A DNA stretch of 64,000 bases from a virus, in the IMG/VR virus record IMGVR_UViG_3300032180_000006, positions 6,265 to 70,264 of that record, one strand, 5' to 3'. The first letter of the stretch is position 1; every line of letters starts with the position of its first letter. Below the pieces are notes generated by a model that saw nothing but the letters and a program-made list of their open reading frames with translations, was not told where the DNA came from and searched no databases. Below, one piece after another: positions 1-30,702 of the stretch. The translations under genes and the position numbers were made by a program.

Positions 1-283
1 GCCCAGCAGCGGTAAAGCCATAGTTAAAGGCTGCCACACCTGCGCAGCTTTGCACGGGCAGGTCGTGCTCGCGCCAGCGTGGTCCAAATTTACCGCACGT
101 CTGTACAGTGTCAGCCGTGCGCACGGCCAGCAGCGCGGTGAAGGCGATTTTATTGGTAGTGTCCAACAGCTTGGGTCGCGGGCTGTCGGGTAGTGTTTGA
201 CAATGACCCATCGCACCGACTAAAAGAAACAGCAGCGCCAGCGCGACGAGGGCTATGGTTACGTCCTTGCTATCTTGTTGCAT
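1..283 (-). CDS. Hypothetical membrane/secreted protein (runs off window edge)
   Basis: ATG at 283 after GGAGG; MQQDSKDVTIALVALALLFLLVGAMG hydrophobic N-terminus; frame open to position 1. Confidence 0.6.
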   Translation of the reverse strand, partial: MQQDSKDVTIALVALALLFLLVGAMGHCQTLPDSPRPKLLDTTNKIAFTALLAVRTADTVQTCGKFGPRWREHDLPVQSCAGVAAFNYGFTAAG

Positions 284-389
284 TTTACTGCCTCCCTTGG
301 AACTGCGTTCGTTCAAGTGGCTGAGGGTTTGGCTGCCACTGGCTATGCGCTAGAACGCAATTCCAAGCGGAGCAGTAAAACTCCGCTTG
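284..389 (-). other. Structured intergenic RNA element with alternative hairpins overlapping the RBS
   Basis: UUGGAAUUGCGUUC/GAACGCAGUUCCAA stem; CAAGCGGAG/CUCCGCUUG hairpin competes with UUUUACUGC/GCAGUAAAA. Confidence 0.55.
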
Positions 390-391
390 TG

Positions 392-622
392 CTACCTGGA
401 TTTTCTGGCTGAGTGTATTACAGATGGCCCGCGCAGCGTGTCGGCGATGAAGAGATTCACTTGGTCTTCATGGCGATACTCAGCAATTCTTCGTTCGTCC
501 ACCCACTCGCCGTCGACGGCTGAGAAGCGTTGTGGCATCAGTTGATAGTAGAGTGAACCGGGAATCAGTTCAACGATGATACGACGATCACCATCGTTGG
601 CGATTAATTCAGATTTTGGCAT
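392..622 (-). CDS. Hypothetical early protein (76 aa, MPKSELI)
   Basis: AAGGAGAA RBS before ATG 622; the MQVASPAT extension in the ORF track is ribozyme sequence. Confidence 0.75.
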   Translation of the reverse strand: MPKSELIANDGDRRIIVELIPGSLYYQLMPQRFSAVDGEWVDERRIAEYRHEDQVNLFIADTLRGPSVIHSARKSR

Positions 623-644
623 TGCATTCTCCTTTAACTGCGTT

Positions 645-709
645 GCAGGGCTTGCAACCTGCATGCCGCATTACAGTCCGCGAGGCAAGGTGCGCGGGCT
701 GTGCTCTGC
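645..709 (-). ncRNA. Twister ribozyme, circularly permuted (P5-type), copy A
   Basis: GCAGAG-CA-[P1 hairpin]-UAAUGC-GGCAU-GCAGG UUGCAAGC CCUGC; T1 GCA/UGC; predicted cut 673/672. Confidence 0.88.
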
Positions 710-713
710 GTCT

Positions 714-929
714 TTACGTACCTGTGATTAAGGTGATGCGCCGCTTAACGCTGTCATCTTCAATTTGCAGCGCCTCAACCACATCATTGACGCACTCGTA
801 TAAGCGTTCTCTAACTTCCGTTTTGCTGAGTTTACTGGTGGGCTGGTCAGCGACAATACTGGCAAGCGCTGCGCCTGCATTGGCTACGCAGTCGTAAAAA
901 CTGCGTTCACGTTTACTACCGTCGGGCAT
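714..929 (-). CDS. Hypothetical early protein (71 aa, MPDGSK)
   Basis: CAGGAGAAGGGAA before ATG 929. Confidence 0.7.
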   Translation of the reverse strand: MPDGSKRERSFYDCVANAGAALASIVADQPTSKLSKTEVRERLYECVNDVVEALQIEDDSVKRRITLITGT

Positions 930-945
930 TTCCCTTCTCCTGTTC

Positions 946-1020
946 TGCCTCATGGCGGACTTGGAACCGCCTGTGTGCATTACAACCCGGCACGAAACCG
1001 GGCTGTCCTCTGCTTAGGCA
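946..1020 (-). ncRNA. Twister ribozyme, P5-type, copy B
   Basis: P5 UGCCU/AGGCA; GCAGAG-GA-CAGCCCGG..CCGGGUUG-UAAUGC; P4 GGCGG UUCCAAGU CCGCC; T1 GGA/UCC; cut 982/981. Confidence 0.9.
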
Positions 1021-1229
1021 ATAGGCTCCAGCGTTACCTTGAACCCGCTTACTGCATCGGGGTCAATACCAGCTTTGAGCATAGCAGCTTTGCTGACGTA
1101 GATACTGGTCAGCGCTGGGTCCTTGGCACCTTGCTCGGCGTCAAAGCGAACACTGTGCTTCTTCTCAATGCGAACGGGCAATAACTGAACGATGGATTTC
1201 GCTGTTATCGTACCCTGTTTAGTAGCCAT
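1014..1229 (-). CDS. Hypothetical early protein (71 aa)
   Basis: GGAGG RBS; stop codon lies 2-3 nt from the GCAGAG of ribozyme B. Confidence 0.75.
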   Translation of the reverse strand: MATKQGTITAKSIVQLLPVRIEKKHSVRFDAEQGAKDPALTSIYVSKAAMLKAGIDPDAVSGFKVTLEPIA

Positions 1230-1251
1230 GATTGGCCTCCATCTGCCTCAT

Positions 1252-1307
1252 GCGCGACTTGGGACGCGCTCTGTGCATTACAGCCCGGTTCGCGGGCTGC
1301 CCTCTGC
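1252..1307 (-). ncRNA. Twister ribozyme, P5-type, copy C
   Basis: GCAGAG-GG-CAGCCCG..CGGGCUG-UAAUGC; P4 GCGCG UCCCAAGU CGCGC; T1 GGG/CCC; cut 1280/1279. Confidence 0.88.
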
Positions 1308-1308
1308 T

Positions 1309-1569
1309 TTATGCTGCTGTGATGGGTTTGAATTCTAGCGCCGCGCATGTATCACAATCATTGCGCCGTTCATGTTGCGCATGTATCAGTAGGCTTTGGA
1401 TTGACGTATCGCCGTTGAACCATTGCTCACAGTGTGTGCACTGATAGCGCTTAACGCCATCGTTGCGGTTTTCAAGTTCAAAGTGCGCGCCAAGGTGCAG
1501 CGCCAGCGTTTCGAATTCTGCCAGCGTTACAGTGCGCAAACGCACATTGTAATTGATAGTTGGTGGCAT
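1309..1569 (-). CDS. Cys/His zinc-finger-like early protein
   Basis: AAGGAG RBS; YQCTHC...HAQH...CDTC. Confidence 0.7.
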   Translation of the reverse strand: MPPTINYNVRLRTVTLAEFETLALHLGAHFELENRNDGVKRYQCTHCEQWFNGDTSIQSLLIHAQHERRNDCDTCAALEFKPITAA

Positions 1570-1585
1570 TTCTGTTCTCCTTTTT

Positions 1586-1648
1586 AGCGTTGCAGGGCTT
1601 GCAACCTGCATGCCGCATTGCGCGGGCAGCGCCCGCGTGCTCTGCGCT
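1586..1648 (-). ncRNA. Twister ribozyme, P5-type, copy D
   Basis: GCAGAG-CA-CGCGGGC GCU GCCCGCG-CAAUGC-GGCAU-GCAGG UUGCAAGC CCUGC; cut C1620/A1619. Confidence 0.85.
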
Positions 1649-1654
1649 TACCTT

Positions 1655-2281
1655 TTACATACCCAGCTTGCCCGCGCACTCCGGGCCGAAACCGCTGGCT
1701 ACACTTTCAGGAACGGTGAGCGTTCGCCCGCATCTGCCGCACTTGCCCGCGTGCCATATTTCAAGCTCGGCGGGCAGTATGCCACCTACCAGTCGGCGCA
1801 GACTCCATGCCAACGCCTTAACAGGTATGCTGTCATTGTTCATGTGGCTCTTGCGGGTAAGCTGGAAGACGTTGTGCTTAATCATGCCGATGTAGACATA
1901 ATCGCCCGTGTTGTCCGGGCCACTTAGCAGGCTGACAAAGTACACCACACCGTTGTTCGCGTAGGCTGGGTTGTCCTTGGCACGGCGCACCTTATAGGTA
2001 TACCGTGCGCCCGTGGCTTTGCTGCGCAGCGTGAAGGTAGCGTTGCCGCCTGTAATGAACTGCAACGCTCGCTGTGCTGTGCTCAGGTGGGCAGGGCCAA
2101 CACCATCTAACGGTAACTGCTGCGCAGGTGCAGGCGGCACCATACGGTCAAATTCGTTGTCTGTGTCGTCAACCGCCATAGCGGGCTTTGCAGGTTTCCT
2201 GCGTGTCATGTCGGCTTGTGTGGTGTTAGCCATGCGCGTATAGAACGGTGCTTCGTTGACGTTGTGGTAACGGCGGGTCAT
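1655..2281 (-). CDS. DUF6011-like zinc-ribbon protein
   Basis: C-terminal CGRCGRTLTVPESVASGFGPEC; AAGGAG RBS before ATG 2281. Confidence 0.75.
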   Translation of the reverse strand: MTRRYHNVNEAPFYTRMANTTQADMTRRKPAKPAMAVDDTDNEFDRMVPPAPAQQLPLDGVGPAHLSTAQRALQFITGGNATFTLRSKATGARYTYKVRRAKDNPAYANNGVVYFVSLLSGPDNTGDYVYIGMIKHNVFQLTRKSHMNNDSIPVKALAWSLRRLVGGILPAELEIWHAGKCGRCGRTLTVPESVASGFGPECAGKLGM

Positions 2282-2298
2282 GGTAAATCTCCTTTGGA

Positions 2299-2402
2299 GC
2301 GTTGCAGGGCTTGCAACCTGCATGCCGCATTACAGCAGCCAAGCCCAGCGAGCAGGGAGTGATGTGCTGGGCTTGGTAACTACTGTGCTCTGCGAACTAC
2401 GC
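2299..2402 (-). ncRNA. Twister ribozyme, P5-type, copy E (long P1)
   Basis: P5 GCGU/ACGC; GCAGAG-CA-CAGUAG..CCAAGCCCAGC/GCUGGGCUUGG..CUGCUG-UAAUGC; same P4/L4 as A and D; cut 2332/2331. Confidence 0.88.
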
Positions 2403-2633
2403 GGCCAGCTTAACCAGCTTGGACGCCACAGCAAAGCGGATGAAGCTGTTGTCCGCGCCGACTTTCTTCAGCTTTGGAATGGCCTTATCGGTGGTCTTGC
2501 TGGTCAGGATGATGTCCATGCCCTTCTGCCGCTTGGTACCCTTGCGAGCACCGTGTTCGCGGTTGATGACGACGATTTTCTTGCCAGTGTAACGACCAAC
2601 GGAACGACGAGCAACTTTCTTTGAGTTTTTCAT
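2397..2633 (-). CDS. Small basic protein, possibly nucleic-acid binding
   Basis: 78 aa, Lys/Arg rich, AAGGA RBS. Confidence 0.7.
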   Translation of the reverse strand: MKNSKKVARRSVGRYTGKKIVVINREHGARKGTKRQKGMDIILTSKTTDKAIPKLKKVGADNSFIRFAVASKLVKLAA

Positions 2634-2684
2634 TTTTGTTTATCCTTTTCTTAGTTGAATTTCTGCGGCTGGTACCTTATACCT

Positions 2685-2740
2685 GAGCTCATCAGTGCCT
2701 GATTTTACAGGCAGACACGGCGCAATGCCGTGTTTCGCTC
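2685..2740 (-). ncRNA. Hammerhead ribozyme, type II
   Basis: GAGC-GAAAC-ACGGC AUUGC GCCGU-GUC-UGCCUG UAAAAU CAGGCA-CUGAUGA-GCUC: complete core and three stems; cut after C at 2714. Confidence 0.95.
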
Positions 2741-2745
2741 TTTTT

Positions 2746-2847
2746 CTAGAGCCATAGAAGACGGCGCAGGTAGTGCGCAAAGCCCGCTAAGTCTGTACAC
2801 AGACCGCGAGCAAAGTTTTGAGCGTAAAGCGCAAATCCTCGTGCCAT
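2746..2847 (-). CDS. Small ORF, 33 aa (MARGFALYAQ)
   Basis: AAGGAGGCGGCAAGAAATG leader, nearly identical to that of the upstream gene; below ORF-track cutoff. Confidence 0.55.
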   Translation of the reverse strand: MARGFALYAQNFARGLCTDLAGFAHYLRRLLWL

Positions 2848-2874
2848 TTCTTGCCGCCTCCTTAACGGTTTCAC

Positions 2875-3108
2875 TTACGCAATGCGAACCATTGCAATCA
2901 GCAGTTCGTTCGGTGTGCCTTTAGCGTAATCCAACCATTTGCCATCTTGCAGGCGTTGTGTGTACAGCATGACTTGTCCTTGACTGTCTACGTAGCTCGC
3001 ACCTTGCGAAATACGATAACGGCCAGTACGGTCGTGCGTCAGTGCAAACTCTTGCGGAAATTTGCCCATCGCTTCTAAAATCTTAAGGTCGTCATTTTCA
3101 TGCCACAT
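2875..3108 (-). CDS. Hypothetical early protein (MWHEND)
   Basis: AGGAGGCGGCAAGAAATG leader. Confidence 0.7.
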   Translation of the reverse strand: MWHENDDLKILEAMGKFPQEFALTHDRTGRYRISQGASYVDSQGQVMLYTQRLQDGKWLDYAKGTPNELLIAMVRIA

Positions 3109-3122
3109 TTCTTGCCGCCTCC

Positions 3123-3213
3123 TAGCGGTTTGCAGCACCTTATACAAGGTTGCCGTGCTTTCGCGGCAATCGCGCTGCATTTCATGCAGTGTATAAGGTG
3201 CTGCAAACCGCTA
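3123..3213. repeat. Perfect 24-bp inverted repeat enclosing two small hairpins
   Basis: TAGCGGTTTGCAGCACCTTATACA (3123-3146) / TGTATAAGGTGCTGCAAACCGCTA (3190-3213). Confidence 0.9.
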
Positions 3214-3457
3214 CGGGTTGCGCCTTGGCTAAAGTGCCGCCCGCTCGGCTGGGCATTGCGTGTACATCCGCTTTTATGCGCGTTACACGTCGCAGCCTGC
3301 TTCGCAGGTGGTTGGTACTTTGCCAAGGGCTTGTGGAGGCGGTGGCTTGCGCGCTTGAAAACCGCCGTAGCTTTCGGGCTGGCCCTCTGCAAGTGCGTTG
3401 CAGTTTAACCGTTTAACTCCGCCTGCCCTGTGTTGTCAATGAACTGTTACTGCACAT

Positions 3458-3486
3458 AATGTACGCCTGTAGTTACAGGCATGCAA
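3458..3486 (-). promoter_or_regulatory. Sigma70-like promoter with palindromic operator, upstream of the ribozyme operon
   Basis: TTGCAT-17 nt-TACATT; spacer contains GCCTGTAACTACAGGC. Confidence 0.55.
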
Positions 3487-3535
3487 GCAAAAAGTGAAAA
3501 ATAGGCCTGACTTTATCAGACCTGTTTTCAATCAC

Positions 3536-3709
3536 TTAGGCAGCGCGTACGAAAACTGACGCAACCCAGCACGGCGGGCTTAGTCGCAGGCGGGCTGCAT
3601 TAATGGCGCGCACATCTTCACCATATCGTAACAGAGTTTGCGTCTGTGCGATGCCCAGTTGTTGCCAGTGCCACCAGCTTTGTGACGCAACAAAATATTC
3701 TGTCTTCAT
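3536..3709 (-). CDS. Hypothetical protein
   Basis: ORF coupled (TAATG) to upstream gene. Confidence 0.5.
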   Translation of the reverse strand: MKTEYFVASQSWWHWQQLGIAQTQTLLRYGEDVRAINAARLRLSPPCWVASVFVRAA

Positions 3710-3936
3710 TATTTCACCGCCGTAACGCAACTGATAGCCGTACCACCATCTGCAAAGTTGGCGACAATAGCGTAACAGCGTGTATGCGTTTCGCGATCTT
3801 CAACGAACAATAAGGTGTGAGTGTGGTTCGTCCATTCAACATTGACCCACAATTTTGAAACCGCTTGCGACAAACCAAGGTTAAATGCCGCCAGCAGCCC
3901 AACAGCTACCCATATTCCTATAACAAATTTTTTCAT
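3709..3936 (-). CDS. Small membrane/secreted protein
   Basis: MKKFVIGIWVAVGLLAAF; GGGAG RBS. Confidence 0.6.
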   Translation of the reverse strand: MKKFVIGIWVAVGLLAAFNLGLSQAVSKLWVNVEWTNHTHTLLFVEDRETHTRCYAIVANFADGGTAISCVTAVK

Positions 3937-4127
3937 GCTGCGCTCCCTTTCTTTAGTTCTTCATTACTTGTCAGCGCGTAGTTTCTTAAGCGATGCTGTA
4001 TGTACAGCAAAAATCGTTCCTCCAAGTCCCTGATATTGTTCGAACGTGGTTCGGCGTTTGCCTGTACTTCCAAGGTGTACTTGGTAGCAAGATACAGCAG
4101 ATGGTCTAATACGCGCCTGTCGTCCAC
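3933..4127 (-). CDS. Hypothetical protein
   Basis: GAGG RBS, GTG start just downstream of a promoter. Confidence 0.5.
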   Translation of the reverse strand: MDDRRVLDHLLYLATKYTLEVQANAEPRSNNIRDLEERFLLYIQHRLRNYALTSNEELKKGSAA

Positions 4128-4147
4128 CGTCTTTTACCTCTACCAGT

Positions 4148-4176
4148 ATTATACCTTTATAACTACACCATTGCAA
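4148..4176 (-). promoter_or_regulatory. Sigma70-like promoter
   Basis: TTGCAA-17 nt-TATAAT; TGTAGTTATA in spacer. Confidence 0.7.
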
Positions 4177-4181
4177 TAGAT

Positions 4182-5627
4182 CTATGGTGTCTGGTGGCGC
4201 ACCTTAATATACGTGCGTAGAGCCTGCATCAACCCGCGCTGTGTGCGTTCTTTGCTGCGCATGGCGCGCAGTTTACTTTCATCTACGGTGTCGCGGGCTA
4301 TAAAGTGGTGGACGATCACGTGGCCGTGCTTGTTACCCTGCCTGCGCACGCGGCGGATAAACTGGTCGTAGTTTTCAAAGTCCCAAGGCACGGTATAGAA
4401 CGCTACGTGCTGGCACTGACCTTCTTGCAGATTAAGCCCATGCGCTACGCTGGCGACGTTACAGGCGAACAGCGACAGCTTATTGCCGTTCCACTGCTGT
4501 ATGATGCGCCGCGCATCGTCGGGCTTGACACCACCTTTAATGTATGGCGTCCGCGGGAACGCGGTCAGTATGCGTTCCAGGTCATGGTCAAACTCAAAGC
4601 CCAGCAGCAGCGGCACACCTTGCAGTTCTTCAACTAGATCTACCAGTGCCTCGGTCTTGGCATTGTGCAGCAATTTACTGATGCGGTTGATGCGCTCGTT
4701 TTTCAGTTCGTTAATATAGATTCCGCCGCTGGCAACTTGACAGCATTTCATACTGGCGACGGCTGCGTTCACGGCGGTAACTACGCTGCGATCTTCCAGT
4801 TCAGCTATCATTTCATCTTCAAGGTCATCGTAAATTTTGCGCGCTGCTGGTGGCAGTGCCACGCGAATAATGTTCGGTACTTCCTTGGGTACCTTGAGGT
4901 ACTCATTTTCATCCAGACTTAGCACCAGCGGCTTGATGGCGCGCTGGATTGCCTTTTCGCCGCCCTGCTTCAATCGCCAGTTGTACACGATTGGCCCGCT
5001 GCCTCCAGCGGGTATAAAATAATTCATGCGGAAATGCGTTATGTATTCGCCCAGCGCCTTTCCTAAGTCTAGAATGTAGATTTGCCCAAACAAATCCATG
5101 TACCCATTAGGATTCGGGCTGCCTGTAAGTATCCAGCGTCGTTGGAAACGTGATAAGAACGGCTTCAGCAGCTTGAACCGCCGTGTTCGCGTGTGTTTGA
5201 ACTTACTGCTTTCATCAATGATCAGCAATTCAGGCTTGATTATATTGAACGGTGACTGCCCGGTGCGATTGGCAAAGAACCACGGCAACCCATCAGGATT
5301 GATAATGTACACATCCGCGTCCGTATTAACGGCATCGTCCTTGTTATCGCCGTGCAGTATGTTCCAACGCAGGTGGCTGAACTGTTTCCACTGGTCAATC
5401 TGCACGGGCCATACTTCATACGCTGGCCGCAAAGGCGGCACCACCAGCGCACGACGAATCAGTTTATTTTTCAGCAGTATGTCTAGTGCTTTTAACGCGA
5501 TGCTGGTTTTTCCCAGTCCTGGGTCTAAGAACAGACCTGCGCTGCATTGTTTTAGCAGGAACTGCACTGCCATTTTTTGATACGGGTGTGGTATCCAATC
5601 CTGTTGCAAAAATGTATTTTCTGGCAT
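4182..5627 (-). CDS. SNF2-like (DEAD/SF2) helicase
   Basis: PGLGKT, IIDESS, LTGSP, HGLNLQ, RVRRQG motifs; start uncertain (5627 or 5771). Confidence 0.9.
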   Translation of the reverse strand: MPENTFLQQDWIPHPYQKMAVQFLLKQCSAGLFLDPGLGKTSIALKALDILLKNKLIRRALVVPPLRPAYEVWPVQIDQWKQFSHLRWNILHGDNKDDAVNTDADVYIINPDGLPWFFANRTGQSPFNIIKPELLIIDESSKFKHTRTRRFKLLKPFLSRFQRRWILTGSPNPNGYMDLFGQIYILDLGKALGEYITHFRMNYFIPAGGSGPIVYNWRLKQGGEKAIQRAIKPLVLSLDENEYLKVPKEVPNIIRVALPPAARKIYDDLEDEMIAELEDRSVVTAVNAAVASMKCCQVASGGIYINELKNERINRISKLLHNAKTEALVDLVEELQGVPLLLGFEFDHDLERILTAFPRTPYIKGGVKPDDARRIIQQWNGNKLSLFACNVASVAHGLNLQEGQCQHVAFYTVPWDFENYDQFIRRVRRQGNKHGHVIVHHFIARDTVDESKLRAMRSKERTQRGLMQALRTYIKVRHQTP

Positions 5628-5988
5628 CAAGTTCGTGGGTAAATCTTCTTGGTACGATTTTGGCAAAAGCGTCGCTGATTGTTTTTGCGAAGAACTTGCC
5701 TTCTTTTTCTCTTCTAAGTAATTCCTTGAGATAGGCAATGGCTTTGTCTTTGTTGTCAAAATAGGTGACATCGTAACCTAGTTTCTTTAGAATACTGATG
5801 GTGTGCTGCTGTAAACGTCTAGGTTTCTTACCCGGTCGCTTGAACTCCATTAAGCAGGGGCGACCGCCCGGTATAAAGAAAATTCTATCTGTGTACCCGC
5901 GTCTGCCCAGCACGTTCAGCTTTAAGTGCAGCAGCCCGCACGCATCAGCCCAGTGGCACACGGGCTTTTCAATGTTGTGTTCAAGCAT
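5464..5988 (-). CDS. VRR-NUC domain nuclease
   Basis: E..IE, GYTDRIF, MEFKRPG..RRLQ. Confidence 0.85.
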   Translation of the reverse strand: MLEHNIEKPVCHWADACGLLHLKLNVLGRRGYTDRIFFIPGGRPCLMEFKRPGKKPRRLQQHTISILKKLGYDVTYFDNKDKAIAYLKELLRREKEGKFFAKTISDAFAKIVPRRFTHELDARKYIFATGLDTTPVSKNGSAVPAKTMQRRSVLRPRTGKNQHRVKSTRHTAEK

Positions 5989-5989
5989 G

Positions 5990-6193
5990 CTAATCTTTCA
6001 ATTCTTTGGCAAGTTCCAGCAAAGCATACCACTGGTTACTGTCAAATGAAATGCCGATCTTGTTATCAATATACACAGATACTACGTTCACTGTACGATG
6101 GCTAACTAAATGCATGGTGTGTCCGGGACATCCTTCTCTTACGCAATCGTCCACACAGCGGTATTGAATCTTTGATGTAGTTTTCGTAGACAT
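5990..6193 (-). CDS. Hypothetical protein
   Basis: Coupled ORF in operon. Confidence 0.55.
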   Translation of the reverse strand: MSTKTTSKIQYRCVDDCVREGCPGHTMHLVSHRTVNVVSVYIDNKIGISFDSNQWYALLELAKELKD

Positions 6194-20162: not shown

Positions 20163-20429
20163 TCAAAACAACCTTTCAAATACATGAAACACAAGTCTGT
20201 CAAATAAAACCGTGCCTATGTATTGTTTCTTGATAATAGGAGCTATTGGATGCCCGGTGCCGCGTATCTCAAAATGTCTATGCTCCTTTGTTTTCTCTAG
20301 TGGATCAACTTCAGCCCACACGCAAACATCGCCAGCCTGCGTATTTACATGCAAAATCTTCGCGCCCATCGGCATGTCAATCGTTTGCGAATCAGCAACC
20401 TTCAATGTGAATTTCCAGATTGTTGTCAT
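20163..20429 (-). CDS. Conserved phage hypothetical protein
   Basis: TIWKF...MPMGAKIL...WAEVDP...GTGH...YIGT...LVFHVFE. Confidence 0.7.
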   Translation of the reverse strand: MTTIWKFTLKVADSQTIDMPMGAKILHVNTQAGDVCVWAEVDPLEKTKEHRHFEIRGTGHPIAPIIKKQYIGTVLFDRLVFHVFERLF

Positions 20430-20577
20430 TGCTCTAACTCCTTGATAGCAGCATAGATTGCCAGTACCACATCGGCGACAGCGCCGCTGCACGTCCAACC
20501 TCGACTTCGTACAAAATACTTGGTCTTAAGTATATTGAAGATTTGCTTCAAACTACCAAGTTCTTCTTCCTGTTTTG

Positions 20578-20835
20578 TCATTTCGCTCCTCCTACAAAAC
20601 CCGGCATACGTTCAACCGGGTTGGCTGCTTCTACATTGTTATTGCGCAGTACCACTTCAATTCCTCTGTATCGCGTGCGCGTGCCTCGTTTAAGATTCCA
20701 GCGCAGCGCATCAACGTCAGTACCATACAACTTGCCAAACGGCAACCAGTCTTTAACTTCATCGTTCCACACTTCAATCGTACGGTCTGGCCCGCGTCTC
20801 ATCATACGCACCCTCTTCCTTCGCATTTCGCGCAT
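20578..20835 (-). CDS. Hypothetical protein
   Basis: ORF in operon. Confidence 0.5.
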   Translation of the reverse strand: MREMRRKRVRMMRRGPDRTIEVWNDEVKDWLPFGKLYGTDVDALRWNLKRGTRTRYRGIEVVLRNNNVEAANPVERMPGFVGGAK

Positions 20836-21245
20836 GCGCTGCGGTTAGATTTCTTAAAATCGGAATTCGTCTTACCTTTACCGTTGCAGCTAGAGCACCA
20901 GCGCAGCCCGCCAAGTTGCAGCTTAGTATCGTACGTCTTGCGCAATGCCCTATCGCGCAGTGTTGCTCGCGCCTCAGTAAGCTGAGCGAACTGTACTGTA
21001 GCTTCACATACCGGGCATCCACGCTGTCGCCCACCTGCTACACAGTCAGCATGCGTGCGCCGTGCACCAGCCCATTGAAGCACTTTGTCTGGATGTAATT
21101 TTTCAGCCAGCTCTTTGAACCGCGCTTCAATCTGCTCTAGTGTGGCCGCTACAGGTACGCCAAGCAGCCCGTAGTAAGTGGTTGCGTACAAGGCGGATTG
21201 TATGTGTGTAGTTTTGCCTGCTTGGCGTGCGCCGCCGAACTTCAT
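20802..21245 (-). CDS. DnaJ-like co-chaperone (J domain plus zinc finger)
   Basis: YYGLLGV...LHPDK...RKTYD; CSSCNGKG and CAKCEGRG. Confidence 0.85.
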   Translation of the reverse strand: MKFGGARQAGKTTHIQSALYATTYYGLLGVPVAATLEQIEARFKELAEKLHPDKVLQWAGARRTHADCVAGGRQRGCPVCEATVQFAQLTEARATLRDRALRKTYDTKLQLGGLRWCSSCNGKGKTNSDFKKSNRSACAKCEGRGCV

Positions 21246-21830
21246 CGCAGCACCCGCGCTCGTATGTAAGTATCGTGAGGTAGATTCAACGGCAACGGCT
21301 CCCACGTCTTGCCGTTGTCAAAACTGAATTCAAGCACACTGCCTTCAGGCCAGTACAATTCTGGTACTTGCGGTTTACCATCTACCGCAACACTTAGTCG
21401 CGTAACGGGTGAAGGTTTTTCTAACTGCGTTCTGGGCCAGACTGCATACATAATGGCCGCACATACCAGCACGGCCAGCGCCAGCGACCATCCCCAACTA
21501 TTTCTTTCCGATTGCATCTTGCAATTCCTTTCGTCGTTTGGCAAGTTTGATTTTCATTGTATACCAGCGTTCAATGCTGGCATGCGCTACCGACACCGCT
21601 GCGTAGAACAAGAACCCAGCACCGAAGGTGTAATGCAGCGCGCTGACTAGGTACTGCAAAGGCTTGTCGGTCATTTCAGCTCCACGCAGGTTGCGTTCAC
21701 AAAGCGATCATGCCAGTAGTTCGCTTCCTGCGTAGCCTGCTGAGCTACCTTAACTCCCTTATGTAGTGTAAACAGCAAAAACACCAACAGGATTGTACCT
21801 AACACAATAATAAGTGGTTTCATTCAAAAC

Positions 21831-22124
21831 CTATCCTTTCCTGCTGAACGCTCCGCCGCGGAATACACTCAGCATTCTACCCATGATCTTACCGAACTTA
21901 CTGCGCTGTGCAGCGGGCTGCTTCAGCTCTTTCTTCGCCTGCTGACGCTCTGTGTCCTGGCGCTGCTTGGTTGTGTTGTCAAACAAAGTTTGCAGGAAGG
22001 CACGCTTGCGCGCTCCAGGTGCTTCGCTCTGTTGGTTGTTGTAGCTGCCATACTTGCGAGTCTGCGCACGCCTGCGCTTAACAGCGCCGATGCGCGGGCT
22101 GGTGTTACATACGTTTGTACTCAT
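21831..22124 (-). CDS. Hypothetical basic protein
   Basis: GGAGG RBS after a promoter. Confidence 0.6.
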   Translation of the reverse strand: MSTNVCNTSPRIGAVKRRRAQTRKYGSYNNQQSEAPGARKRAFLQTLFDNTTKQRQDTERQQAKKELKQPAAQRSKFGKIMGRMLSVFRGGAFSRKG

Positions 22125-22154
22125 ATCCCTCCATAGATTTGTGTGATGGCGAAC

Positions 22155-22184
22155 ATTGTAGTTACAAAGTTACACGAGGCGCAA
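22155..22184 (-). promoter_or_regulatory. Sigma70-like promoter with operator overlapping -10
   Basis: TTGCGC-18 nt-TACAAT; TGTAACTACA. Confidence 0.5.
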
Positions 22185-22196
22185 GTAACAAGTTAG

Positions 22197-22589
22197 CTAA
22201 CCTGCGCCTTTCGGGTTTAGATTGTTGCGCTCGCTCCACGGACGGTAATGGTGCAGCTTGTTGCGCGTCTGCTTGGTCATAGGTTGCGTGAACAGCGCTG
22301 TTCTACCTTGGCTATGGTTATCTGGGTCAGTCCATGTTTCAAATTCGACCTTTAGATTAACCAGATTGCCGCATACAGCTTCTAGTTGCTGCTCATCAGG
22401 CAAACCTACGATGATCACGTTCGGATGGCCGTTAGGTCTGCTGCCCGAGGTGAATGCTTCTGCTAAGGGCATATTGCGCACCATATCGACGCCTGCTTCA
22501 ATGGCGGCATGCGCCACGGCAACAAGCTGCTCCCAGTTGAACAAGTCCTGCCGCACAAAGATAAATACATATGCTTCATCAAGATTCAT
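22197..22589 (-). CDS. Peptidyl-tRNA hydrolase 2-like protein
   Basis: IFVRQDL...AVAHAA...IIVG.DEQQL...W.DPD...TAL.TQP. Confidence 0.7.
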   Translation of the reverse strand: MNLDEAYVFIFVRQDLFNWEQLVAVAHAAIEAGVDMVRNMPLAEAFTSGSRPNGHPNVIIVGLPDEQQLEAVCGNLVNLKVEFETWTDPDNHSQGRTALFTQPMTKQTRNKLHHYRPWSERNNLNPKGAG

Positions 22590-22599
22590 AGATTCTCCT

Positions 22600-22824
22600 T
22601 TAAAACATACCAGCGATGCGCCCGCAATAGTAGCGCCACGCATCATCTATTTCTGCTATGTGTTCCGGGAACACAGCATAGTAGGTAATCAACCGCAAAG
22701 CAAAAGCCAACGAAGACAAGTAACCTCGCATTCGTTGCTCAGCCTTGAGCCTATCCATATGCGTAGCAAACAATAGATACTCCTCTTTATTTTGCTGTAT
22801 GCGCAGCGCACCAATACCGATCAT
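22600..22824 (-). CDS. Hypothetical protein
   Basis: ATGA coupling. Confidence 0.5.
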   Translation of the reverse strand: MIGIGALRIQQNKEEYLLFATHMDRLKAEQRMRGYLSSLAFALRLITYYAVFPEHIAEIDDAWRYYCGRIAGMF

Positions 22825-23492
22825 GGTTTAATCACTCCCGCCCTAATTTCCTCAATATACTTTTCAAGATAGTGTTGCGCCTTCTCAAGGTCTTGCAGCC
22901 CATTCTTAAACTTCCACCGCTCCACGTATTTGGTGATCACGCCCTGGAAGTAATCAAATTTCTTCAGCGCCGCGTAATCCCAGTGCTGCATCTCAGAACC
23001 GTGCACACGGTAGTGATCGCCACCCACCTGCCTCGCATTCGCACCCTCTTTGTGGTCATACTGATCAGATGGTCTGTTCGCTGATTCAATCTTAACGGTG
23101 ATGGGCTCTTTCCTGTCCATGATGCTGAGTATAGCCGCGTCTAACTTCTCTGCTGCGATACTGTGATACTCATGCGATCCATGTGTCTGCTGCGCCAGCA
23201 TTTCTTTAGCAGCTTCAAACAATTCACGTACTTGGTTCTCTGTGGCGTTCAATGGTATCTGTGTCATGGTTTCTCCTTGGCCGCCTTGTATCTGCGTTAT
23301 CCCTTCCCAACAGTAGTCCCACTCATCGCACAGATAGTCAATCGCATCAAACTGCCGTGCCGTGGGTCGAAGTGTTCTGTCCTTGCGCCGTATAATACCC
23401 TTGTCGTCAATAAAGTTGTCGCCCAGCACATTCCACGCCTGCACATCCCCTTCAGGAAACTTCGCTCGTAGCCTTTCACTTGCTTGTGGCAT
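22821..23492 (-). CDS. DUF3310 domain protein with N-terminal extension
   Basis: QVGGDHY...G.ITKYV.RW..KNG.QDLEKA.HYL. Confidence 0.85.
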   Translation of the reverse strand: MPQASERLRAKFPEGDVQAWNVLGDNFIDDKGIIRRKDRTLRPTARQFDAIDYLCDEWDYCWEGITQIQGGQGETMTQIPLNATENQVRELFEAAKEMLAQQTHGSHEYHSIAAEKLDAAILSIMDRKEPITVKIESANRPSDQYDHKEGANARQVGGDHYRVHGSEMQHWDYAALKKFDYFQGVITKYVERWKFKNGLQDLEKAQHYLEKYIEEIRAGVIKP

Positions 23493-23501
23493 GCTTCTCC
23501 T

Positions 23502-23720
23502 TTAACCTAGATTTATGCTGCACTTCGTGCAGTGACTATACATAAACCCGCCATCGTCGATGTGTGGGTTGCAGTTCTGCTGTGCTACAACCAACTCATC
23601 TCGGATTTCTTTATGCTTCTGCTCCAGTGCTTGTTCTAGCGGCGGTATTTCTTGGTCTAGCCGACGGCAGTAGCGTTGCCACGGCGTTTCATCAACAACA
23701 GCCTTAACAGTTATCGCCAA
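23502..23720 (-). CDS. Hypothetical protein
   Basis: AGGAGG RBS, TTG start. Confidence 0.55.
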   Translation of the reverse strand: MAITVKAVVDETPWQRYCRRLDQEIPPLEQALEQKHKEIRDELVVAQQNCNPHIDDGGFMYSHCTKCSINLG

Positions 23721-24041
23721 TTAATCCAACCTCCTATCCGGTGTCATTTGCTTTACCTTGTTCTCAAGTTTATCAATTCTACTTTCTACAATCAGAACAC
23801 CGATGAACGTACCAATCGTGAAAAACGATAATACGATTAACCACGTGTAAGCCCATTCCATTAGAATTTCTCCTTTAATCGTACATTTCTTCGTACGTGT
23901 TTTTCCTACGCAACATGCGACACGTCTGGCATTCGTGTAGATGCCAGTACAGGCGCGTGCATTCTCCATCTTTAGTAATGCACACTTCATTACCTTGTGA
24001 TCTCACAATACGCTGCGCTAGTTCGCACAAATCAGATTTCA

Positions 24042-26177
24042 TTAGAACTTCTCCTTCTTCACGTTCTTCACTCCAATCGCCCGCTCCCTGTCGTACAGCG
24101 CACCGACTTCCGCGGGCTTCATCTTAACCAGCTTGGCAATGTCGCCGCGCAATACCCACAGCCGCTGATGCCCGCTTATCTCTGTGCGCACGCTGGCACC
24201 TTGGTTCGCCTGCACCAGCCCGCTCCGGCGCAATTCACGCGCCATGCCGTTTGTCGTTACCTTTGTCTTACCGTCAGGGTCGTACAAGGCGCGCAGCTCC
24301 TCGCTGGTAAACAAGGTGTGTTTCAGTTTCAAATCACCCAGTCGCAGCACGCGGTCGGGCTCCAGCTTCAGGCGCTGGCACCACTGGCCGAGGTCGCTCT
24401 TCCCGGCATCTATCATGTCTTTTTTACTTTGTGTGGTGGGAGCGTGCGCGCTGGGATTAAACCCTGTAAGGTCTAGGTTAAGAAGATGATGGAACAGGTA
24501 AGACGCACCGCCAGTATCAAGCCACTGGATGTATCCTTTGTAGAATTCCTCGGTCTTAGGCTCAGTACTTCGTACCTCGTGTACAAAGAACCGCCTATCC
24601 GCATCCTCGAGGAAGAAAGCATCTGGGTGATTGGATGTGAAGTAGTAATTGATGCAATCAGGAACGGTATAACTGGGAACATACTTTGGATTCAACCTTA
24701 TCGCTTTCTGCGTGATCATCGACTTCATACGATCCGCCGTGTTGCGCTTGTCGCCGCCTGTGATTTCATCCGCCATCACGAATTGCTTGTGCTCAGCCCA
24801 TTCGTTGTGGGTACTGTACAGGTCGCGGTCACCAATCTCAGTAGCATTACTGCCGTAGATTTTAAACATGGTGGTGCCTACCAGCGTCTTACCCGTGCCC
24901 TGTAGTAATCCCCACATTACAGCAGCGCTGTACAACTTAAAGCCCGGATGTTGCAGCGGGTAAGCAAGCCACTGCTCAAACCAAGTGCGGGCAGCATGGT
25001 CAATGCCGCTGAACAGATAGTCCAGCAACTCCAACCACGGGCGAATGGTGCTTGGGCTGCTGGTTACGGCAGGCTGCACTCCCCATCCGGGCCAGCAGTT
25101 AAAGCTGCCTGCTACAACGCGGTCAGCTCCGGGCAGGTACGTTGCTCGCACCACCTTACTGCGGTGCTTCCACTTCAGCCATTCACGCGGCGCGCTTTTC
25201 TCTGTTACCTTTACCTCATCATCCTTGCCAATCTTGTGCTCGTAATATACGCGATCGCTGTAGGCGTGGTCGGTAAAGGCACGGCAACTAAGGCGCTGCA
25301 AGGTGTCAAGGCGTACAATCAAACCCGGATCTTCTACGTACAATACCTCCTCGTTCAGGGTAAGCAGTTCCTGCGCCGCTGCGAACTCAACCGCGTTGTG
25401 CACCACAATGTCGCTTTGGAACGCTTCCACGCCACGGTCCACTATGTAATCGTCCAGCCCGGTTTTAGCCTCGCTGGCAAGGCTGGGCAGGCGCACTATA
25501 TAAGGTACGGCGCCAAGGGTCTTAAACAGCTCGCGGGCCAGCGCGTTTTCTGCCTGTACAACGTTTGGATTCGTCATCGCATCGCTGTCGTACACAATGT
25601 ATACAATGCGATCCTTCCAGTCTATCCAGTTAAAGGCAGGCAGCAGCGGCAAAGTCTGCGCCTTGCTCTTAAAGCACCACACACCACCTAAGCCCATACA
25701 GGCAAGACCTTCCTTGCAGGCACAGGCAGCCTTGATCTCACCTTCGGTTATAAATATAGGTATGGCAGTGTCGCGGGCTATTACGGGCCACGGCGCGAGG
25801 GGAGGCAGGTAAACTTCATTCAAACTCTTGGCGGGCTGCGCATAGCGCAACTGCTTGGCTGTAATGCTGACCAGCGCGTTGAATCCGCTCTGCACTTCTG
25901 CGCCTTCAAGATAGCGAAAGCGGAAGAAGGTAGTGGGTTTGCCTTGCAGGTCGAAATAAGGTATGCGAAAACCTGCCCGGTATACAGGCAAGCTGTCCAA
26001 CGCTGCGCACTGCACGGCGGTAAGCGCTTGCAGCTTTAAACGCTGGGCATCCTTGGCATCAAGCCCGCTGTGCTTCAACTTTTCCAACATGGCAGCCTGC
26101 ACGGAGGCAACACTGGTGAATTTACTTCGCACCGTTTTGCCTGCGGACACAGACACACCATTGCTAACAATAGGCAT
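24042..26177 (-). CDS. Primase-helicase (DUF3854 TOPRIM-like plus SF3-type NTPase)
   Basis: ITEGEIKA, YDSD, GLDD; GLLQGTGKT, ADE, FTSNH, DRRF. Confidence 0.9.
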   Translation of the reverse strand: MPIVSNGVSVSAGKTVRSKFTSVASVQAAMLEKLKHSGLDAKDAQRLKLQALTAVQCAALDSLPVYRAGFRIPYFDLQGKPTTFFRFRYLEGAEVQSGFNALVSITAKQLRYAQPAKSLNEVYLPPLAPWPVIARDTAIPIFITEGEIKAACACKEGLACMGLGGVWCFKSKAQTLPLLPAFNWIDWKDRIVYIVYDSDAMTNPNVVQAENALARELFKTLGAVPYIVRLPSLASEAKTGLDDYIVDRGVEAFQSDIVVHNAVEFAAAQELLTLNEEVLYVEDPGLIVRLDTLQRLSCRAFTDHAYSDRVYYEHKIGKDDEVKVTEKSAPREWLKWKHRSKVVRATYLPGADRVVAGSFNCWPGWGVQPAVTSSPSTIRPWLELLDYLFSGIDHAARTWFEQWLAYPLQHPGFKLYSAAVMWGLLQGTGKTLVGTTMFKIYGSNATEIGDRDLYSTHNEWAEHKQFVMADEITGGDKRNTADRMKSMITQKAIRLNPKYVPSYTVPDCINYYFTSNHPDAFFLEDADRRFFVHEVRSTEPKTEEFYKGYIQWLDTGGASYLFHHLLNLDLTGFNPSAHAPTTQSKKDMIDAGKSDLGQWCQRLKLEPDRVLRLGDLKLKHTLFTSEELRALYDPDGKTKVTTNGMARELRRSGLVQANQGASVRTEISGHQRLWVLRGDIAKLVKMKPAEVGALYDRERAIGVKNVKKEKF

Positions 26178-26195
26178 GGTCGCGGTGTCCTTGTA

Positions 26196-26699
26196 TTACT
26201 TGGCTGGGCTGGAAACGTTGGTTCCTACACGGTTCTTATCACCATATATAATCTGGTGCTGATACTGCTCCATCTCTCGCTCATAGGCTTCCACGCCTAG
26301 TGCCACAAGGAAGTACACAAAACTGTGTCGGCTAGGTTTGTACTTGGCTGGGTTTACCAGCGCTGCGCGGCACTGGCGCAGAAAGTCGTTGGCATGCTTA
26401 ACGCCTTTAGCGCGTGCGATGGTCTGGGCTTCTTTAAACTGCGCAGGTGTAACTCTAGTAGCGCGTGGTGCGTAGTAGTGCAGTTCTTGCAGCTTATAAA
26501 GGTGCTCGTCGATGCGAATGCGCAGCTCGTCGTTGAACTTGAGCAGCACATTGGCATTATCACCTATCTTCATATCGCTGCGGAATGGCTTTTTCTCGGG
26601 TACTAAAGGTACAACGGCGGGCGCTACTTCGGCTGTCTTCTTCGCTTTCTCTACCCACTGCTGTTGTTTGCGCTTGCTAAGCTGCGCGGATTTTGGCAC
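26196..26699 (-). CDS. Hypothetical protein, first gene of leftward arm
   Basis: GAGGA RBS, GTG start. Confidence 0.6.
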   Translation of the reverse strand: MPKSAQLSKRKQQQWVEKAKKTAEVAPAVVPLVPEKKPFRSDMKIGDNANVLLKFNDELRIRIDEHLYKLQELHYYAPRATRVTPAQFKEAQTIARAKGVKHANDFLRQCRAALVNPAKYKPSRHSFVYFLVALGVEAYEREMEQYQHQIIYGDKNRVGTNVSSPAK

Positions 26700-27345
26700 G
26701 TTTGCGTGTCCTCAGTTCTATAAATTGTTCGCTCCACTTACTTACAGGTGCGGGCAAGTAGTAAAGCATTTTATAACCCGGAAGCGCAAGTGAGAGGTTT
26801 GTAATTGTACAATTTGCGCAGTGTACACACGGTAGATTGCAGTTTTGGACATGGTAACGGTATAGTGTACGCGCAAAATTGTACAATCCGCCGTGAACAA
26901 AGCGCATTACGGCAAATAATGTGCCGCAAATCTCTGAAGGTGTTTGTCATATTGCGTTCGTCTAACCGGGCTGTTTACGCAGGTGCGCAGTGGTGCGCGC
27001 TCGGCACATGGGCATTTAATGCGTGTATTGTACGCGGTGTTTCGCAGTAGCGGCTGGGCATGCAGGTATAGAGTGCTCAGTGTATACGCTGAGTGCTTGC
27101 GGCACATTTTATGCAAAACGTGCTCAAACTCTATGTGTACAAAACACCTATTTCTTATTTACATGTATCTTTTATAAATAAATACACATATTTTCTAACA
27201 ATATAGTTTGCGACCAAAAATAGCATAATGTGCCGCACGATATCGTTAACGATCACCAACGATAGTTTTCCCGACCATTTCAGTAATCTCTTTGTCACTC
27301 TCCGTTCCGAGATGCTTGCACCGCGCAGACCTGCACTGCCATAAT
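26700..27345. promoter_or_regulatory. Divergent non-coding control region (candidate origin/pac)
   Basis: Strand switch; TGTACA palindromes; inverted repeat 26804-26819/26871-26887; AT-rich 27140-27230. Confidence 0.5.
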
Positions 27346-27352
27346 GCCGCGC

Positions 27353-27571
27353 ATGGCGAAAGCAAACTCGCTTCCCAGTTTCCCGTTCGTTGATGACAGA
27401 GTTCATCCTCTCGGTGGACGAGACTTCCGGAGAATGAGCGTCAAGGAACTGCGTGGTCTATTGCCCGATAATCTCTACATCCTGAACGGCACGGAAAGCG
27501 AAGGTGCGCTGGCCGTGCTCATGTCGTTTGACACGTTCGTGCATCTACAGCAGCTATTGCAGAACAGATGA
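27353..27571 (+). CDS. Small protein, weak Phd/YefM-like resemblance
   Basis: MSVKELR...AVLMSFDTF..L. Confidence 0.4.
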   Translation: MAKANSLPSFPFVDDRVHPLGGRDFRRMSVKELRGLLPDNLYILNGTESEGALAVLMSFDTFVHLQQLLQNR

Positions 27572-27575
27572 CACT

Positions 27576-27830
27576 ATGCAGCGCCACGATCTTAGCAGCG
27601 TTGGATATTCATGGATTCGACGGGGGAACTCTGGGTTCGTGGTGCTGTGTAGCGTCATTCTGCTGGCAGGTTGTGCAAAGCGTAATACTAGCGTGCACGT
27701 ACCGCACGTGAATGACACGATAGAGATTCGCAATGTACATGGTGCCTGCACTACGTATTGCTTAGTGCACCATGTTCAGTTTGATGCGCGAACAGGTCGT
27801 CAGGCTATTGTGTGTAAAGATGCTAACTGA
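27576..27830 (+). CDS. Putative lipoprotein
   Basis: VILLAGC lipobox; start uncertain. Confidence 0.45.
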   Translation: MQRHDLSSVGYSWIRRGNSGFVVLCSVILLAGCAKRNTSVHVPHVNDTIEIRNVHGACTTYCLVHHVQFDARTGRQAIVCKDAN

Positions 27831-28194
27831 AAGGAGGGGCGATTATGCGTGTTTTTGCATTACTTGATAGAGTGCTAAAAAACAAATGCCAAAAACAACG
27901 TAGTGCCGATGGTGGCTGGCGCGGAGCAATTCGCGATGGCTGCCTAGGTTCAAAGCAGGGCTGGCTTCGGCTGGCCCTGTTCCATTCCCTTCAGTGGTTA
28001 TTGACACGCGCTCCCCGAGCAGCGTTTTGCGCCGCTGCTTTTCTGGGCGTGTCTGCGGTGAGCCGAGCGTGTGGCGTGGTGAACCATGCGCCCGGTTCAC
28101 CTACAAAGATTCCAGCGCGTATGATGCGCGGAGAGATTCCGCGATGCCTTCTTCCGCGTGCTTCGGCCATGAAACAAAGCGCTGGAACCTATTA

Positions 28195-28944
28195 ATGCCA
28201 AAGAAACCTAAAATCGTTACGAACGACCCGCTGGTGGCAGCGACAAAGCAGCGCCATATAAAGCGAATGAAGAAGCAATCGCGTGAAGCGACGAAGCGTA
28301 ATCTACCTGCCAAGGGCTTGGAGTATGGCACCACACGCGAGGCACGGCGCACGTTGCCCGCTGAAAGCTGTAAGCACTTGCCGGGTCGCAATTCAAACAT
28401 CAACATAAGAAACATCACAGCAGCGCAGAAGAAAGCTGTCGCCGCGGAATGGGTTAAGGACTTCAACTTTAGCGCGACCGCCGTGCGCGCAGATATTAAG
28501 CGTGGCACGCTGTGGAACTTGTTGCATCGTGATGCTGAGTTCATGGGTATTGTACGTGAACTGAGCGGCGCGATCGCAGAAGAAGTAGGTATGGACGCTA
28601 AGGAAACGCTCTTGGAAGCCAGCCGTGTCGCGCGAGGCAACATACTAGACTACTTTGAATGCGACGATGATGGTGATTTGAAGTTAACGCTTGCTTCTGT
28701 AACACGCGGTAAGATGGCCGCTGTGCGCAGCATTGAGTATGAGGAATGCTGGCAAGGACGAGGTGAGGATCGTGTACTCGTTCGCAAACCCAGAATTACC
28801 ATGCACAACAAGAATGAGGCGTTGAAACTTGTAGCGCAGATCAACAAGATGTTGGGCGATACTCTGCCCGGTGGAGCTCCAGGTTCTATGCCTCCGCCCG
28901 CCATTATCGTTAAGTTCACTAACGACGAGGTAGTAAAACTGTAG
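28195..28944 (+). CDS. terS: Terminase small subunit
   Basis: DFNFSATA, ETLLE..RVA.GNI.DY, K.EALK; directly upstream of TerL. Confidence 0.85.
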   Translation: MPKKPKIVTNDPLVAATKQRHIKRMKKQSREATKRNLPAKGLEYGTTREARRTLPAESCKHLPGRNSNINIRNITAAQKKAVAAEWVKDFNFSATAVRADIKRGTLWNLLHRDAEFMGIVRELSGAIAEEVGMDAKETLLEASRVARGNILDYFECDDDGDLKLTLASVTRGKMAAVRSIEYEECWQGRGEDRVLVRKPRITMHNKNEALKLVAQINKMLGDTLPGGAPGSMPPPAIIVKFTNDEVVKL

Positions 28945-30324: not shown

Positions 30325-30702
30325 ATGGCTGACGTAAAAGAAAAAGCAATATTGCATACGAACGAACAAGGTGTGGCGCAGCGCAAGCACCTTGCAGCGC
30401 GGTTAACAGACGCGGAACTATTCGCAATCATAGATAGTTATCGCGAAGGACGTGATGATAGTGCAAGTACCACTGACGCGCTGTTGGCACAACTGATTCT
30501 TACACACCGAGGACACTGATATGTCACATCCACGCAGAAAATCAACGTTAGGGCTACGCACCAAAGACACAGACAACGCCATGCGTCTGTTGATTACGCA
30601 AGCGCAGGACATACCGATCAACGTGAAGGACAGCGCACCTAATCGCCACTTGATGGAAACGTTCTGGGCTTGGGTTGATCATCGCACTAAGAAAGTAAAG
30701 AA

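Follow-up and report, generated by a model that had tools for sequence, protein, structure and literature searches.

The closest described systems are hammerhead arrays of prophages. According to Perreault et al. (2011; PMC3088659), prophage genes are singly flanked by multiple clustered hammerheads, which was taken to imply that long phage transcripts are cut into mRNAs of operon length or of single genes; three triple hammerhead arrays cleave in vitro, one of them also in E. coli, and spliced or circular products were sought and none was found. Here we describe a locus of the same kind in the virus record IMGVR_UViG_3300032180_000006 from IMG/VR (70,264 bases, rated 100% complete), of which bases 6265-70264 were analysed as a window of 64 kilobases (kb). 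On the minus strand of this window, at positions 645-2740, one candidate hammerhead and five candidate twister ribozymes separate consecutive small genes. [quoted passage not shown] The initial annotation of the window was aware of no described phage operon punctuated in this manner. That claim is contradicted by the prophage hammerhead arrays of the 2011 paper, and it is also countered by larger twister-P5 arrays (up to 15 copies) in other viral records. Twister arrays at successive phage gene junctions were not found in the literature searched; Roth 2014, Weinberg 2015 and Felletti 2017 may tabulate such arrays. The layout having been known for phages since 2011, the operon is a clean, unusually regular further instance of it, and neither the recurrence of such arrays nor the P5 permutation of the twisters changes the class of the finding.

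What small self-cleaving ribozymes do for bacteria and phages has yet to be settled, according to a 2019 review (PMC6765202). It states that a processing of polycistronic transcripts with different stabilities has been suggested, that the purpose is unproven, and that twisters share gene neighbourhoods with hammerheads; in the present locus the two classes are seen as a mixed array. Weinberg et al. (2017; PMC5737381) place bacterial ribozymes within 6 kb of certain gene classes. In the engineered system pRAP (PMC9872166), a twister between the genes of engineered E. coli operons yields monocistronic mRNAs in vivo, and a stem-loop before the cut is required to express all cistrons except the last one. 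The operon described here would be a natural counterpart of pRAP, in which one transcript gives monocistronic mRNAs with identical leaders; near-identical ones are predicted here behind the five twisters. pRAP is engineered, its twister cuts at the 5' end and its stem-loop is added separately, whereas the natural P5 permutation, which leaves the P1 hairpin upstream of the cut, would itself supply the feature that was added by hand in pRAP.

Two other systems are comparable in part. The early transcript of phage T7 is cut at double-stranded sites by the host RNase III, which leaves 5'-phosphate and 3'-OH ends. The operon is predicted to resemble it in that a polycistron is split, at structures between the genes, into mRNAs of gene length that end in hairpins; however, cis-acting RNA catalysts would leave 5'-OH and 2',3'-cyclic phosphate ends here, and two hairpins at the borders of the array might still be RNase III sites. 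Eukaryotic RNA viruses likewise have a ribozyme in a short intergenic spacer upstream of an open reading frame (ORF), with translation from the cut 5' end, but their ribozymes are mostly type I hammerheads, the cutting replaces cap-dependent initiation, and there is no Shine-Dalgarno context.

Ribozymes at six consecutive junctions

Candidate ribozymes occupy all six consecutive spacers that separate seven minus-strand ORFs (Table 1). All of them lie on the coding strand, each placed after a stop codon and before the next ribosome-binding site, and the whole operon is compact, complete and regular, with six junctions in 2.1 kb. The internal segments between neighbouring ribozymes contain exactly one ORF each (five of five), spanning 83-95% of the segment. 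Stop codons and the ribozymes that follow them are -1 to 8 nt apart: twister copy 3 directly adjoins the upstream stop codon (0 nt), and the first base of copy 4 is the final base of that codon (1-nt overlap). From the twister end to the start codon there are 23-25 nt, with AGGAG or GGAGG preceding the start. The hammerhead begins 5 nt past the stop codon of the ORF of 33 amino acids (aa) and ends 48 nt ahead of the start of the 78-aa ORF. Both neighbouring junctions lack a ribozyme: the spacer at 2875/2847 is 27 nt long, and the one at 392/286 holds a long hairpin.

Rfam covariance models were run over the whole window at gathering thresholds, and a laxer scan (E<=5) of positions 1-6000 gave nine matches in total. 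The five twisters score 42.1-48.4 bits over positions 1-58 of the Twister-P5 model (RF02684; E 5e-7 to 2e-5), the cut-off being 37.6 bits. The hammerhead matches Hammerhead_II (RF02276; cut-off 37 bits) with 33.9 bits, E being 4e-4 in 6 kb and 1.2e-6 per record. The other three matches were rejected as noise: a long hairpin matched twice as a microRNA, and a riboswitch at E 2.6. No further ribozyme family was found in 1-6000 at E<=5, a scan of the complete record revealed no twister beyond the five, and the 6.2 kb outside the window contain no ribozyme at E<=1.

Thus far the initial annotation was largely upheld. It had placed a ribozyme ahead of each of six consecutive genes, and all six spacers are indeed filled on the coding strand; its division into one hammerhead and five twisters agrees with the Rfam models, and its six cut sites are those computed from the model alignments. 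Its coordinates were mostly right, the outer limits 2299-2402 and 946-1020 being slightly wider than the model matches. The covariance-model check that it had proposed turned out positive for the twisters, which exceed the Twister-P5 cut-off in five of five cases, and negative for the hammerhead, which stays under the Hammerhead_II cut-off.

The hammerhead core is nevertheless intact, comprising CUGAUGA, GAAA and a GUC cleavage triplet (NUH), with stems I and III closed and stem II open; the element reads GAGC-GAAA-CACGGC/GCCGUG-UC^-UGCCUG/CAGGCA-CUGAUGA-GCUC, and the score shortfall is located in the 3' tail of the model. In the twisters, the core GCAGAG, the cleavage site N^AAUGC and CAAG in loop 4 are present in five of five copies. 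The base preceding the cut is U in four copies and C in one (copy 2). Relative to the twister-P5 family the fold is identical, the differences being this C and a 37-nt insertion in P1 of copy 1.

Since pseudoknots are not scored by the covariance model, the tertiary contacts T1 and T2 provide an independent test of the twister assignment. Their positions, which we take to be those of the published structures, were read by register-anchored parsing; a MAFFT alignment of 16 twisters misplaced the 5' GAG-NN block across columns and was unsuitable for counting pairs. In the window T1 is CA/UG in three copies (1, 2 and 5), GG/CC in copy 3 and GA/UC in copy 4, while T2 is GC/GC in copies 1, 2 and 5 and AC/GU in copies 3 and 4, so that all T1 and T2 pairs of the five copies are complementary. 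The comparison was extended to 65 twisters from 12 loci, i.e., the copies of this window and those of 11 loci from other viral records. All 65 have complementary T1 dinucleotides, of six pair types. For T2 an automatic rule scored 62 of the 65 as complementary; the other three all read GC one base leftward, which points to a register ambiguity of the rule. Helices P1, P2 and P4 are kept by compensatory changes. P1 has five different sequences in the five copies, all of which fold (-9.2 to -27.2 kcal/mol; -12.8 kcal/mol in copy 2), the most stable being that of copy 1 (-27.2 kcal/mol), where the insertion forms an 11-bp P1 extension; P4 is CAGG/CCUG, CGCG/CGCG or GCGG/CCGC. When the two flanks of each window twister were compared by eye, no consistent pairing that could make up a P5 stem emerged. 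Motifs, positions and covariation together indicate that the six elements are probably genuine self-cleaving ribozymes, with catalysis predicted.

Table 1. Features of the ribozyme array and its borders (window coordinates), and the larger twister arrays found in other IMG/VR records (coordinates of those records).
Feature	Position	Strand	Details
Terminator-like hairpin	3523-3503	-	9-pair stem followed by ATTTTT
Upstream long hairpin	3213-3123	-	two nearly perfect arms of ~23 nt, ~45 nt apart
ORF	2875-3108	-	77 aa; precedes the 33-aa ORF
ORF	2746-2847	-	33 aa; GGAGG site; no family match; status as a real gene uncertain
Type II hammerhead	2740-2682	-	RF02276, 33.9 bits; predicted cut C2714/U2713
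ORF, first ribozyme-led gene	2397-2633	-	78 aa; no family match
Twister P5 copy 1	2394-2305	-	RF02684, 42.1 bits; predicted cut 2332/2331
ORF	1655-2281	-	208 aa; C-terminal DUF6011 domain
Twister P5 copy 2	1646-1593	-	RF02684, 48.4 bits; predicted cut 1620/1619
ORF	1309-1569	-	86 aa; Cys/His motifs
Twister P5 copy 3, subtype B	1308-1253	-	RF02684, 48.3 bits; predicted cut 1280/1279
ORF	1014-1229	-	71 aa; no family match
Twister P5 copy 4, subtype B	1014-955	-	RF02684, 47.1 bits; predicted cut 982/981
ORF	714-929	-	71 aa; no family match
Twister P5 copy 5	710-646	-	RF02684, 47.6 bits; predicted cut 673/672
ORF, last ribozyme-led gene	392-622	-	76 aa; no family match
Downstream long hairpin	381-283	-	~100 nt; z -4.8; 0 of 200 shuffles fold as well
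Larger array, G065	21418-30802		15 twister-P5 copies; record rated complete
Larger array, G052	29-5090		14 twister-P5 copies
Larger array, G010	79760-89005 and 939-995		13 copies; record rated complete; spans the terminal repeat
Larger array, G026	20163-25116		9 twister-P5 copies; record rated complete

Predicted processing of the transcript and rival explanations

Judging from sequence and predicted folds, we consider it likely that the ribozymes divide an early or middle polycistronic transcript into mRNAs of one gene each, all with similar leaders and with a hairpin capping the 3' end; that the genes are co-transcribed, that cleavage takes place in vivo and that the phage benefits is what we infer from the layout. 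One minus-strand polycistronic RNA of the 70-kb myovirus would carry all six ribozymes, each of which would cleave itself during transcription, in the spacer between the stop codon of one gene and the ribosome-binding site of the following one, and release gene-length mRNAs. Because of the P5 permutation, a twister cuts directly 3' of the G+C-rich P1 hairpin, so the upstream mRNA would end in this hairpin plus one base bearing a 2',3'-cyclic phosphate, and the downstream mRNA would have a 5'-OH and the P4 hairpin at its start, with an accessible Shine-Dalgarno site located a constant distance further on. Folding predictions give twister-led leaders of 50, 50, 50, 52 and 50 nt after the cut and a leader of 80 nt for the hammerhead-led gene. 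A predicted twister-led leader begins with the 5'-OH and a 5-bp P4 hairpin, and its region from -14 to -5 is mostly unpaired (mean probability 0.36-0.85 in the five twister-led genes); for the Shine-Dalgarno site the predicted probability of being unpaired is 0.36-0.91. The predicted upstream pieces end 32-68 nt past the stop codon, in a hairpin and one base (twisters) or two (hammerhead). The shape of the pieces proposed in the initial annotation, with a hairpin at the 3' end and a 5'-OH with the P4 hairpin before the ribosome-binding site, is thereby reproduced by folding, the 3' hairpin being flush with the end and the Shine-Dalgarno site exposed. The likely benefit would be insulation, every small gene obtaining an identical, defined leader and a shielded 3' end in spite of its neighbours or of host nucleases, and the P5 permutation may be favoured since it keeps the P1 hairpin on the upstream fragment.

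Several observations weigh against such processing or against its value to the phage. The hammerhead scores about 3 bits below its curated cut-off, and no pairing between loop I (UAAAAU) and the 3' tail, a contact that type II hammerheads need for fast cutting at low Mg2+, was found by eye. The C before the cut in copy 2 is unique among the 50 parsed twisters (the other 15 of 65 being unparsed); C at this position is tolerated in twisters. Searches for close relatives of the phage or of its twister modules were negative: positions 600-2800 had no blastn match in phage records and one twister had a single insignificant match of 18 nt there, exact and degenerate patterns of the twister module had no match each in viral contigs, the 27-nt twister module had none in metagenome contigs, and a helicase-based locus search yielded no loci; the searched sets may lack the record of the window itself or those closest to it. 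The nearest relatives, with PolA 41-42% identical, are the cultured Stenotrophomonas phage AXL3 and Pseudoxanthomonas phage PW916 and an uncultured siphovirus record; the order of ligase, PolA, exonuclease and helicase genes is common to AXL3 and the siphovirus record, the two that were examined over a wide stretch. A twister or hammerhead was found in none of the three, which indicates that the layout is dispensable. Finally, where the host has RNase J, an mRNA can be marked for decay by its 5'-OH, glmS being cited as such a case in the 2019 review (PMC6765202), so that cutting could lower expression rather than stabilise it.

The ribozymes could also cut and yet serve mainly as recombination linkers, short homologies for the swapping or duplication of cassettes of small genes. 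Repeated promoter and stem-loop boundaries have been proposed as such linkers in T4-like phages. Here, three copies have an identical 33-nt 3' half, including 6 nt (CAACGC) past the model, and CAUGAGGCAGA after the model end is common to the two other copies. The cargo consists mostly of ORFans, with few genes common to the arrays of different phages, and a twister-like relic is present in the leader at ~3403-3340. Homologues of the 208-aa gene exist elsewhere without ribozymes: two relatives of its product on viral contigs (51-52% identity) are free of Rfam matches over 4 kb to each side, so the ribozymes are not tied to that gene. DNA homology alone, however, would need neither the restriction to the coding strand nor the fixed stop and start distances, compensatory changes in both pseudoknots and in P1 reveal selection at the RNA level, and no related phage with differing cassettes between conserved ribozymes was found. 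We regard a main role as linkers as unlikely. About equally improbable is that the module of ribozyme and ribosome-binding site is a selfish or nearly neutral repeat, with the cutting tolerated and of no use to the phage. The absence from all three nearest relatives would fit this, as would the patchy distribution over unrelated phages and the greater likeness of copies within one array than between arrays; but no transposition machinery is associated with the modules, the strict stop and start register and the preservation of the tertiary pairings suggest that activity is under purifying selection, and 13-15 copies in complete genomes would be costly were cutting harmful.

Two further possibilities concern the cutting itself and the fate of its products. 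Cutting might be conditional, with terminating ribosomes or changes in Mg2+ modulating the folding and thereby coupling the fate of an mRNA to upstream translation. With -1 to 8 nt between the stop codon and the first paired base of the twister, P2 and some of P1 would be covered by a ribosome terminating there, and an alternative GCUC/GAGC pairing, seen by eye, could compete with stem II of the hammerhead. Yet neither an aptamer-like extension nor an alternative structure that is conserved was found, and the Shine-Dalgarno sites are mostly open in the predicted cut product. Twisters are moreover among the fastest self-cleavers, so that folding would probably outrun the ribosome, and such a switch seems very improbable. 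Only a slight chance is likewise given to circularisation by host RtcB, which would turn the pieces between two ribozymes into circular, exonuclease-proof phage mRNAs. RtcB joins 5'-OH and 2',3'-cyclic phosphate ends, and engineered twister-flanked RNAs circularise through them. In the piece with the 208-aa gene the half-twisters on the two sides belong to one subtype and could come together again around the ends; in the other three twister-to-twister pieces T1 of the neighbouring halves is mismatched at one of two positions. RtcB, a phage RNA polymerase and an RNA ligase were not found among the 103 ORFs scanned.

Twister arrays in other viral records

A survey of viral contigs with a degenerate twister DNA pattern returned at least 129 stretches, the 80 listed loci falling in 73 records; being pre-selected by the pattern, this sample is biased and cannot yield a prevalence. 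Among the matches listed, the covariance model found twister-P5 in 55 of the 73 records, with at least four copies in 12 and at least five in 10, and the ten richest records contain 15, 14, 13, 9, 7, 7, 6, 6, 5 and 5 copies (see Table 1 for the four largest arrays). In 11 loci from array records, 60 of 61 Rfam matches are twister-P5, the remaining one being a hammerhead II inside a twister array. The 54 internal segments of 11 arrays have a median distance of 30 nt from ribozyme to start codon and 6.5 nt from stop codon to ribozyme, and 36 of the 54 contain a single ORF of at least 40 aa by a crude ORF rule. The same register of type-P5 twister arrays, with 0-8 nt from stop codon to ribozyme and about 23-30 nt from ribozyme to start codon, thus recurs in unrelated uncultured phages, and the arrays of different phages have few genes in common. 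A relative of the PolA of this phage was found in none of the five array-bearing records tested for it.

The same DNA pattern also matches many bacterial genomes and metagenome-assembled genomes (MAGs), as pattern matches only. In one uncultured Eubacteriales MAG (CAZFBC010000001.1, 24129-26784; locus L183) six pattern matches lie within 2.6 kb of a 36.9-kb contig. Going by these pattern matches only, the cluster is probably a phage or prophage array with a Firmicutes background.

Borders of the array and gene content

No convincing promoter or terminator was found inside 392-2847, in a scan that is blind to phage-specific promoters. Sigma-70-like sites number four versus 2.7 expected, and one weak site (603-576, 9/12) lies inside the array. 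Upstream, the terminator-like hairpin at 3523-3503 probably closes the preceding transcription unit. It is followed by an ORF-free leader of ~390 nt. In this leader, at ~3403-3340 on the minus strand, there is CUGCAACGC, a tail common to three twisters, then GCAGAGGG and after it a P4-like hairpin with a loop containing CAAGC; the cleavage site UAAUGC is missing. This element looks like a decayed seventh twister; it has no Rfam match at E<=5.

The array is bordered by two long hairpins. The upstream one (3213-3123) stops just short of the Shine-Dalgarno site of the 77-aa ORF, and the region 3100-3540 folds with a z of -6.6, matched by none of 100 shuffles. Its 3' arm and ribosome-binding site are partly repeated ahead of the 33-aa ORF (2874-2845). 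This hairpin delimits the unit on its upstream side and may act as an operator or as a site of the RNase III type. In the downstream one (381-283) the 3' arm covers both the Shine-Dalgarno site and the start codon (286-284) of the gene that follows, a 138-aa ORF extending past the window. The downstream hairpin stands at a place in which one would expect a ribozyme, and may serve as a translational lock or be cut by RNase III. A weak mir-2574 match at 283-381 is spurious and caused by the hairpin shape. As both border hairpins may be sites for a host double-strand RNase, the unit need not escape host processing, and the proposal of the initial annotation that the polycistron is cut without host nucleases is not fully borne out.

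Of the eight ORFs at the array, a family match was obtained for the 208-aa ORF only (phrog_20259, 1.3e-45; PF19474/DUF6011, 4.6e-13). The 78-aa ORF has its paralogue in the C-terminus of a 277-aa protein (L008, 3154-3987; 69% identity over 61 aa), whose gene sits 5 kb downstream in the record, and the 86-aa ORF is paralogous to L008 5737-6129 (32.5% identity over 80 aa), with Cys/His motifs in both. Both paralogues lie outside the array, a few kb downstream, and are transcribed in the same direction.

The record represents a complete myovirus genome. Terminase, portal, capsid, sheath and baseplate genes are encoded on the plus strand, and a minus-strand block contains genes for primase, DNA ligase, PolA, a PD-(D/E)XK exonuclease and an SNF2 helicase, followed by the array. 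Beyond the array there are genes for a glycosyltransferase, a radical-SAM protein and a 5-hydroxymethyldeoxyuridine (5-hmdU) DNA kinase. The kinase gene (PF18723, phrog_2396) is split between window positions 63584-63967 and L008 1-624, that is, across the record ends, which indicates that the genome is circular or circularly permuted and was linearised within this gene. A thymidylate-synthase-like gene was found at 62338-63411, a TET-associated glycosyltransferase gene at L008 2202-3098 and a radical-SAM/SPASM gene at L008 1336-2205. Together with the kinase, this gene set suggests hypermodified thymidine in the phage DNA.

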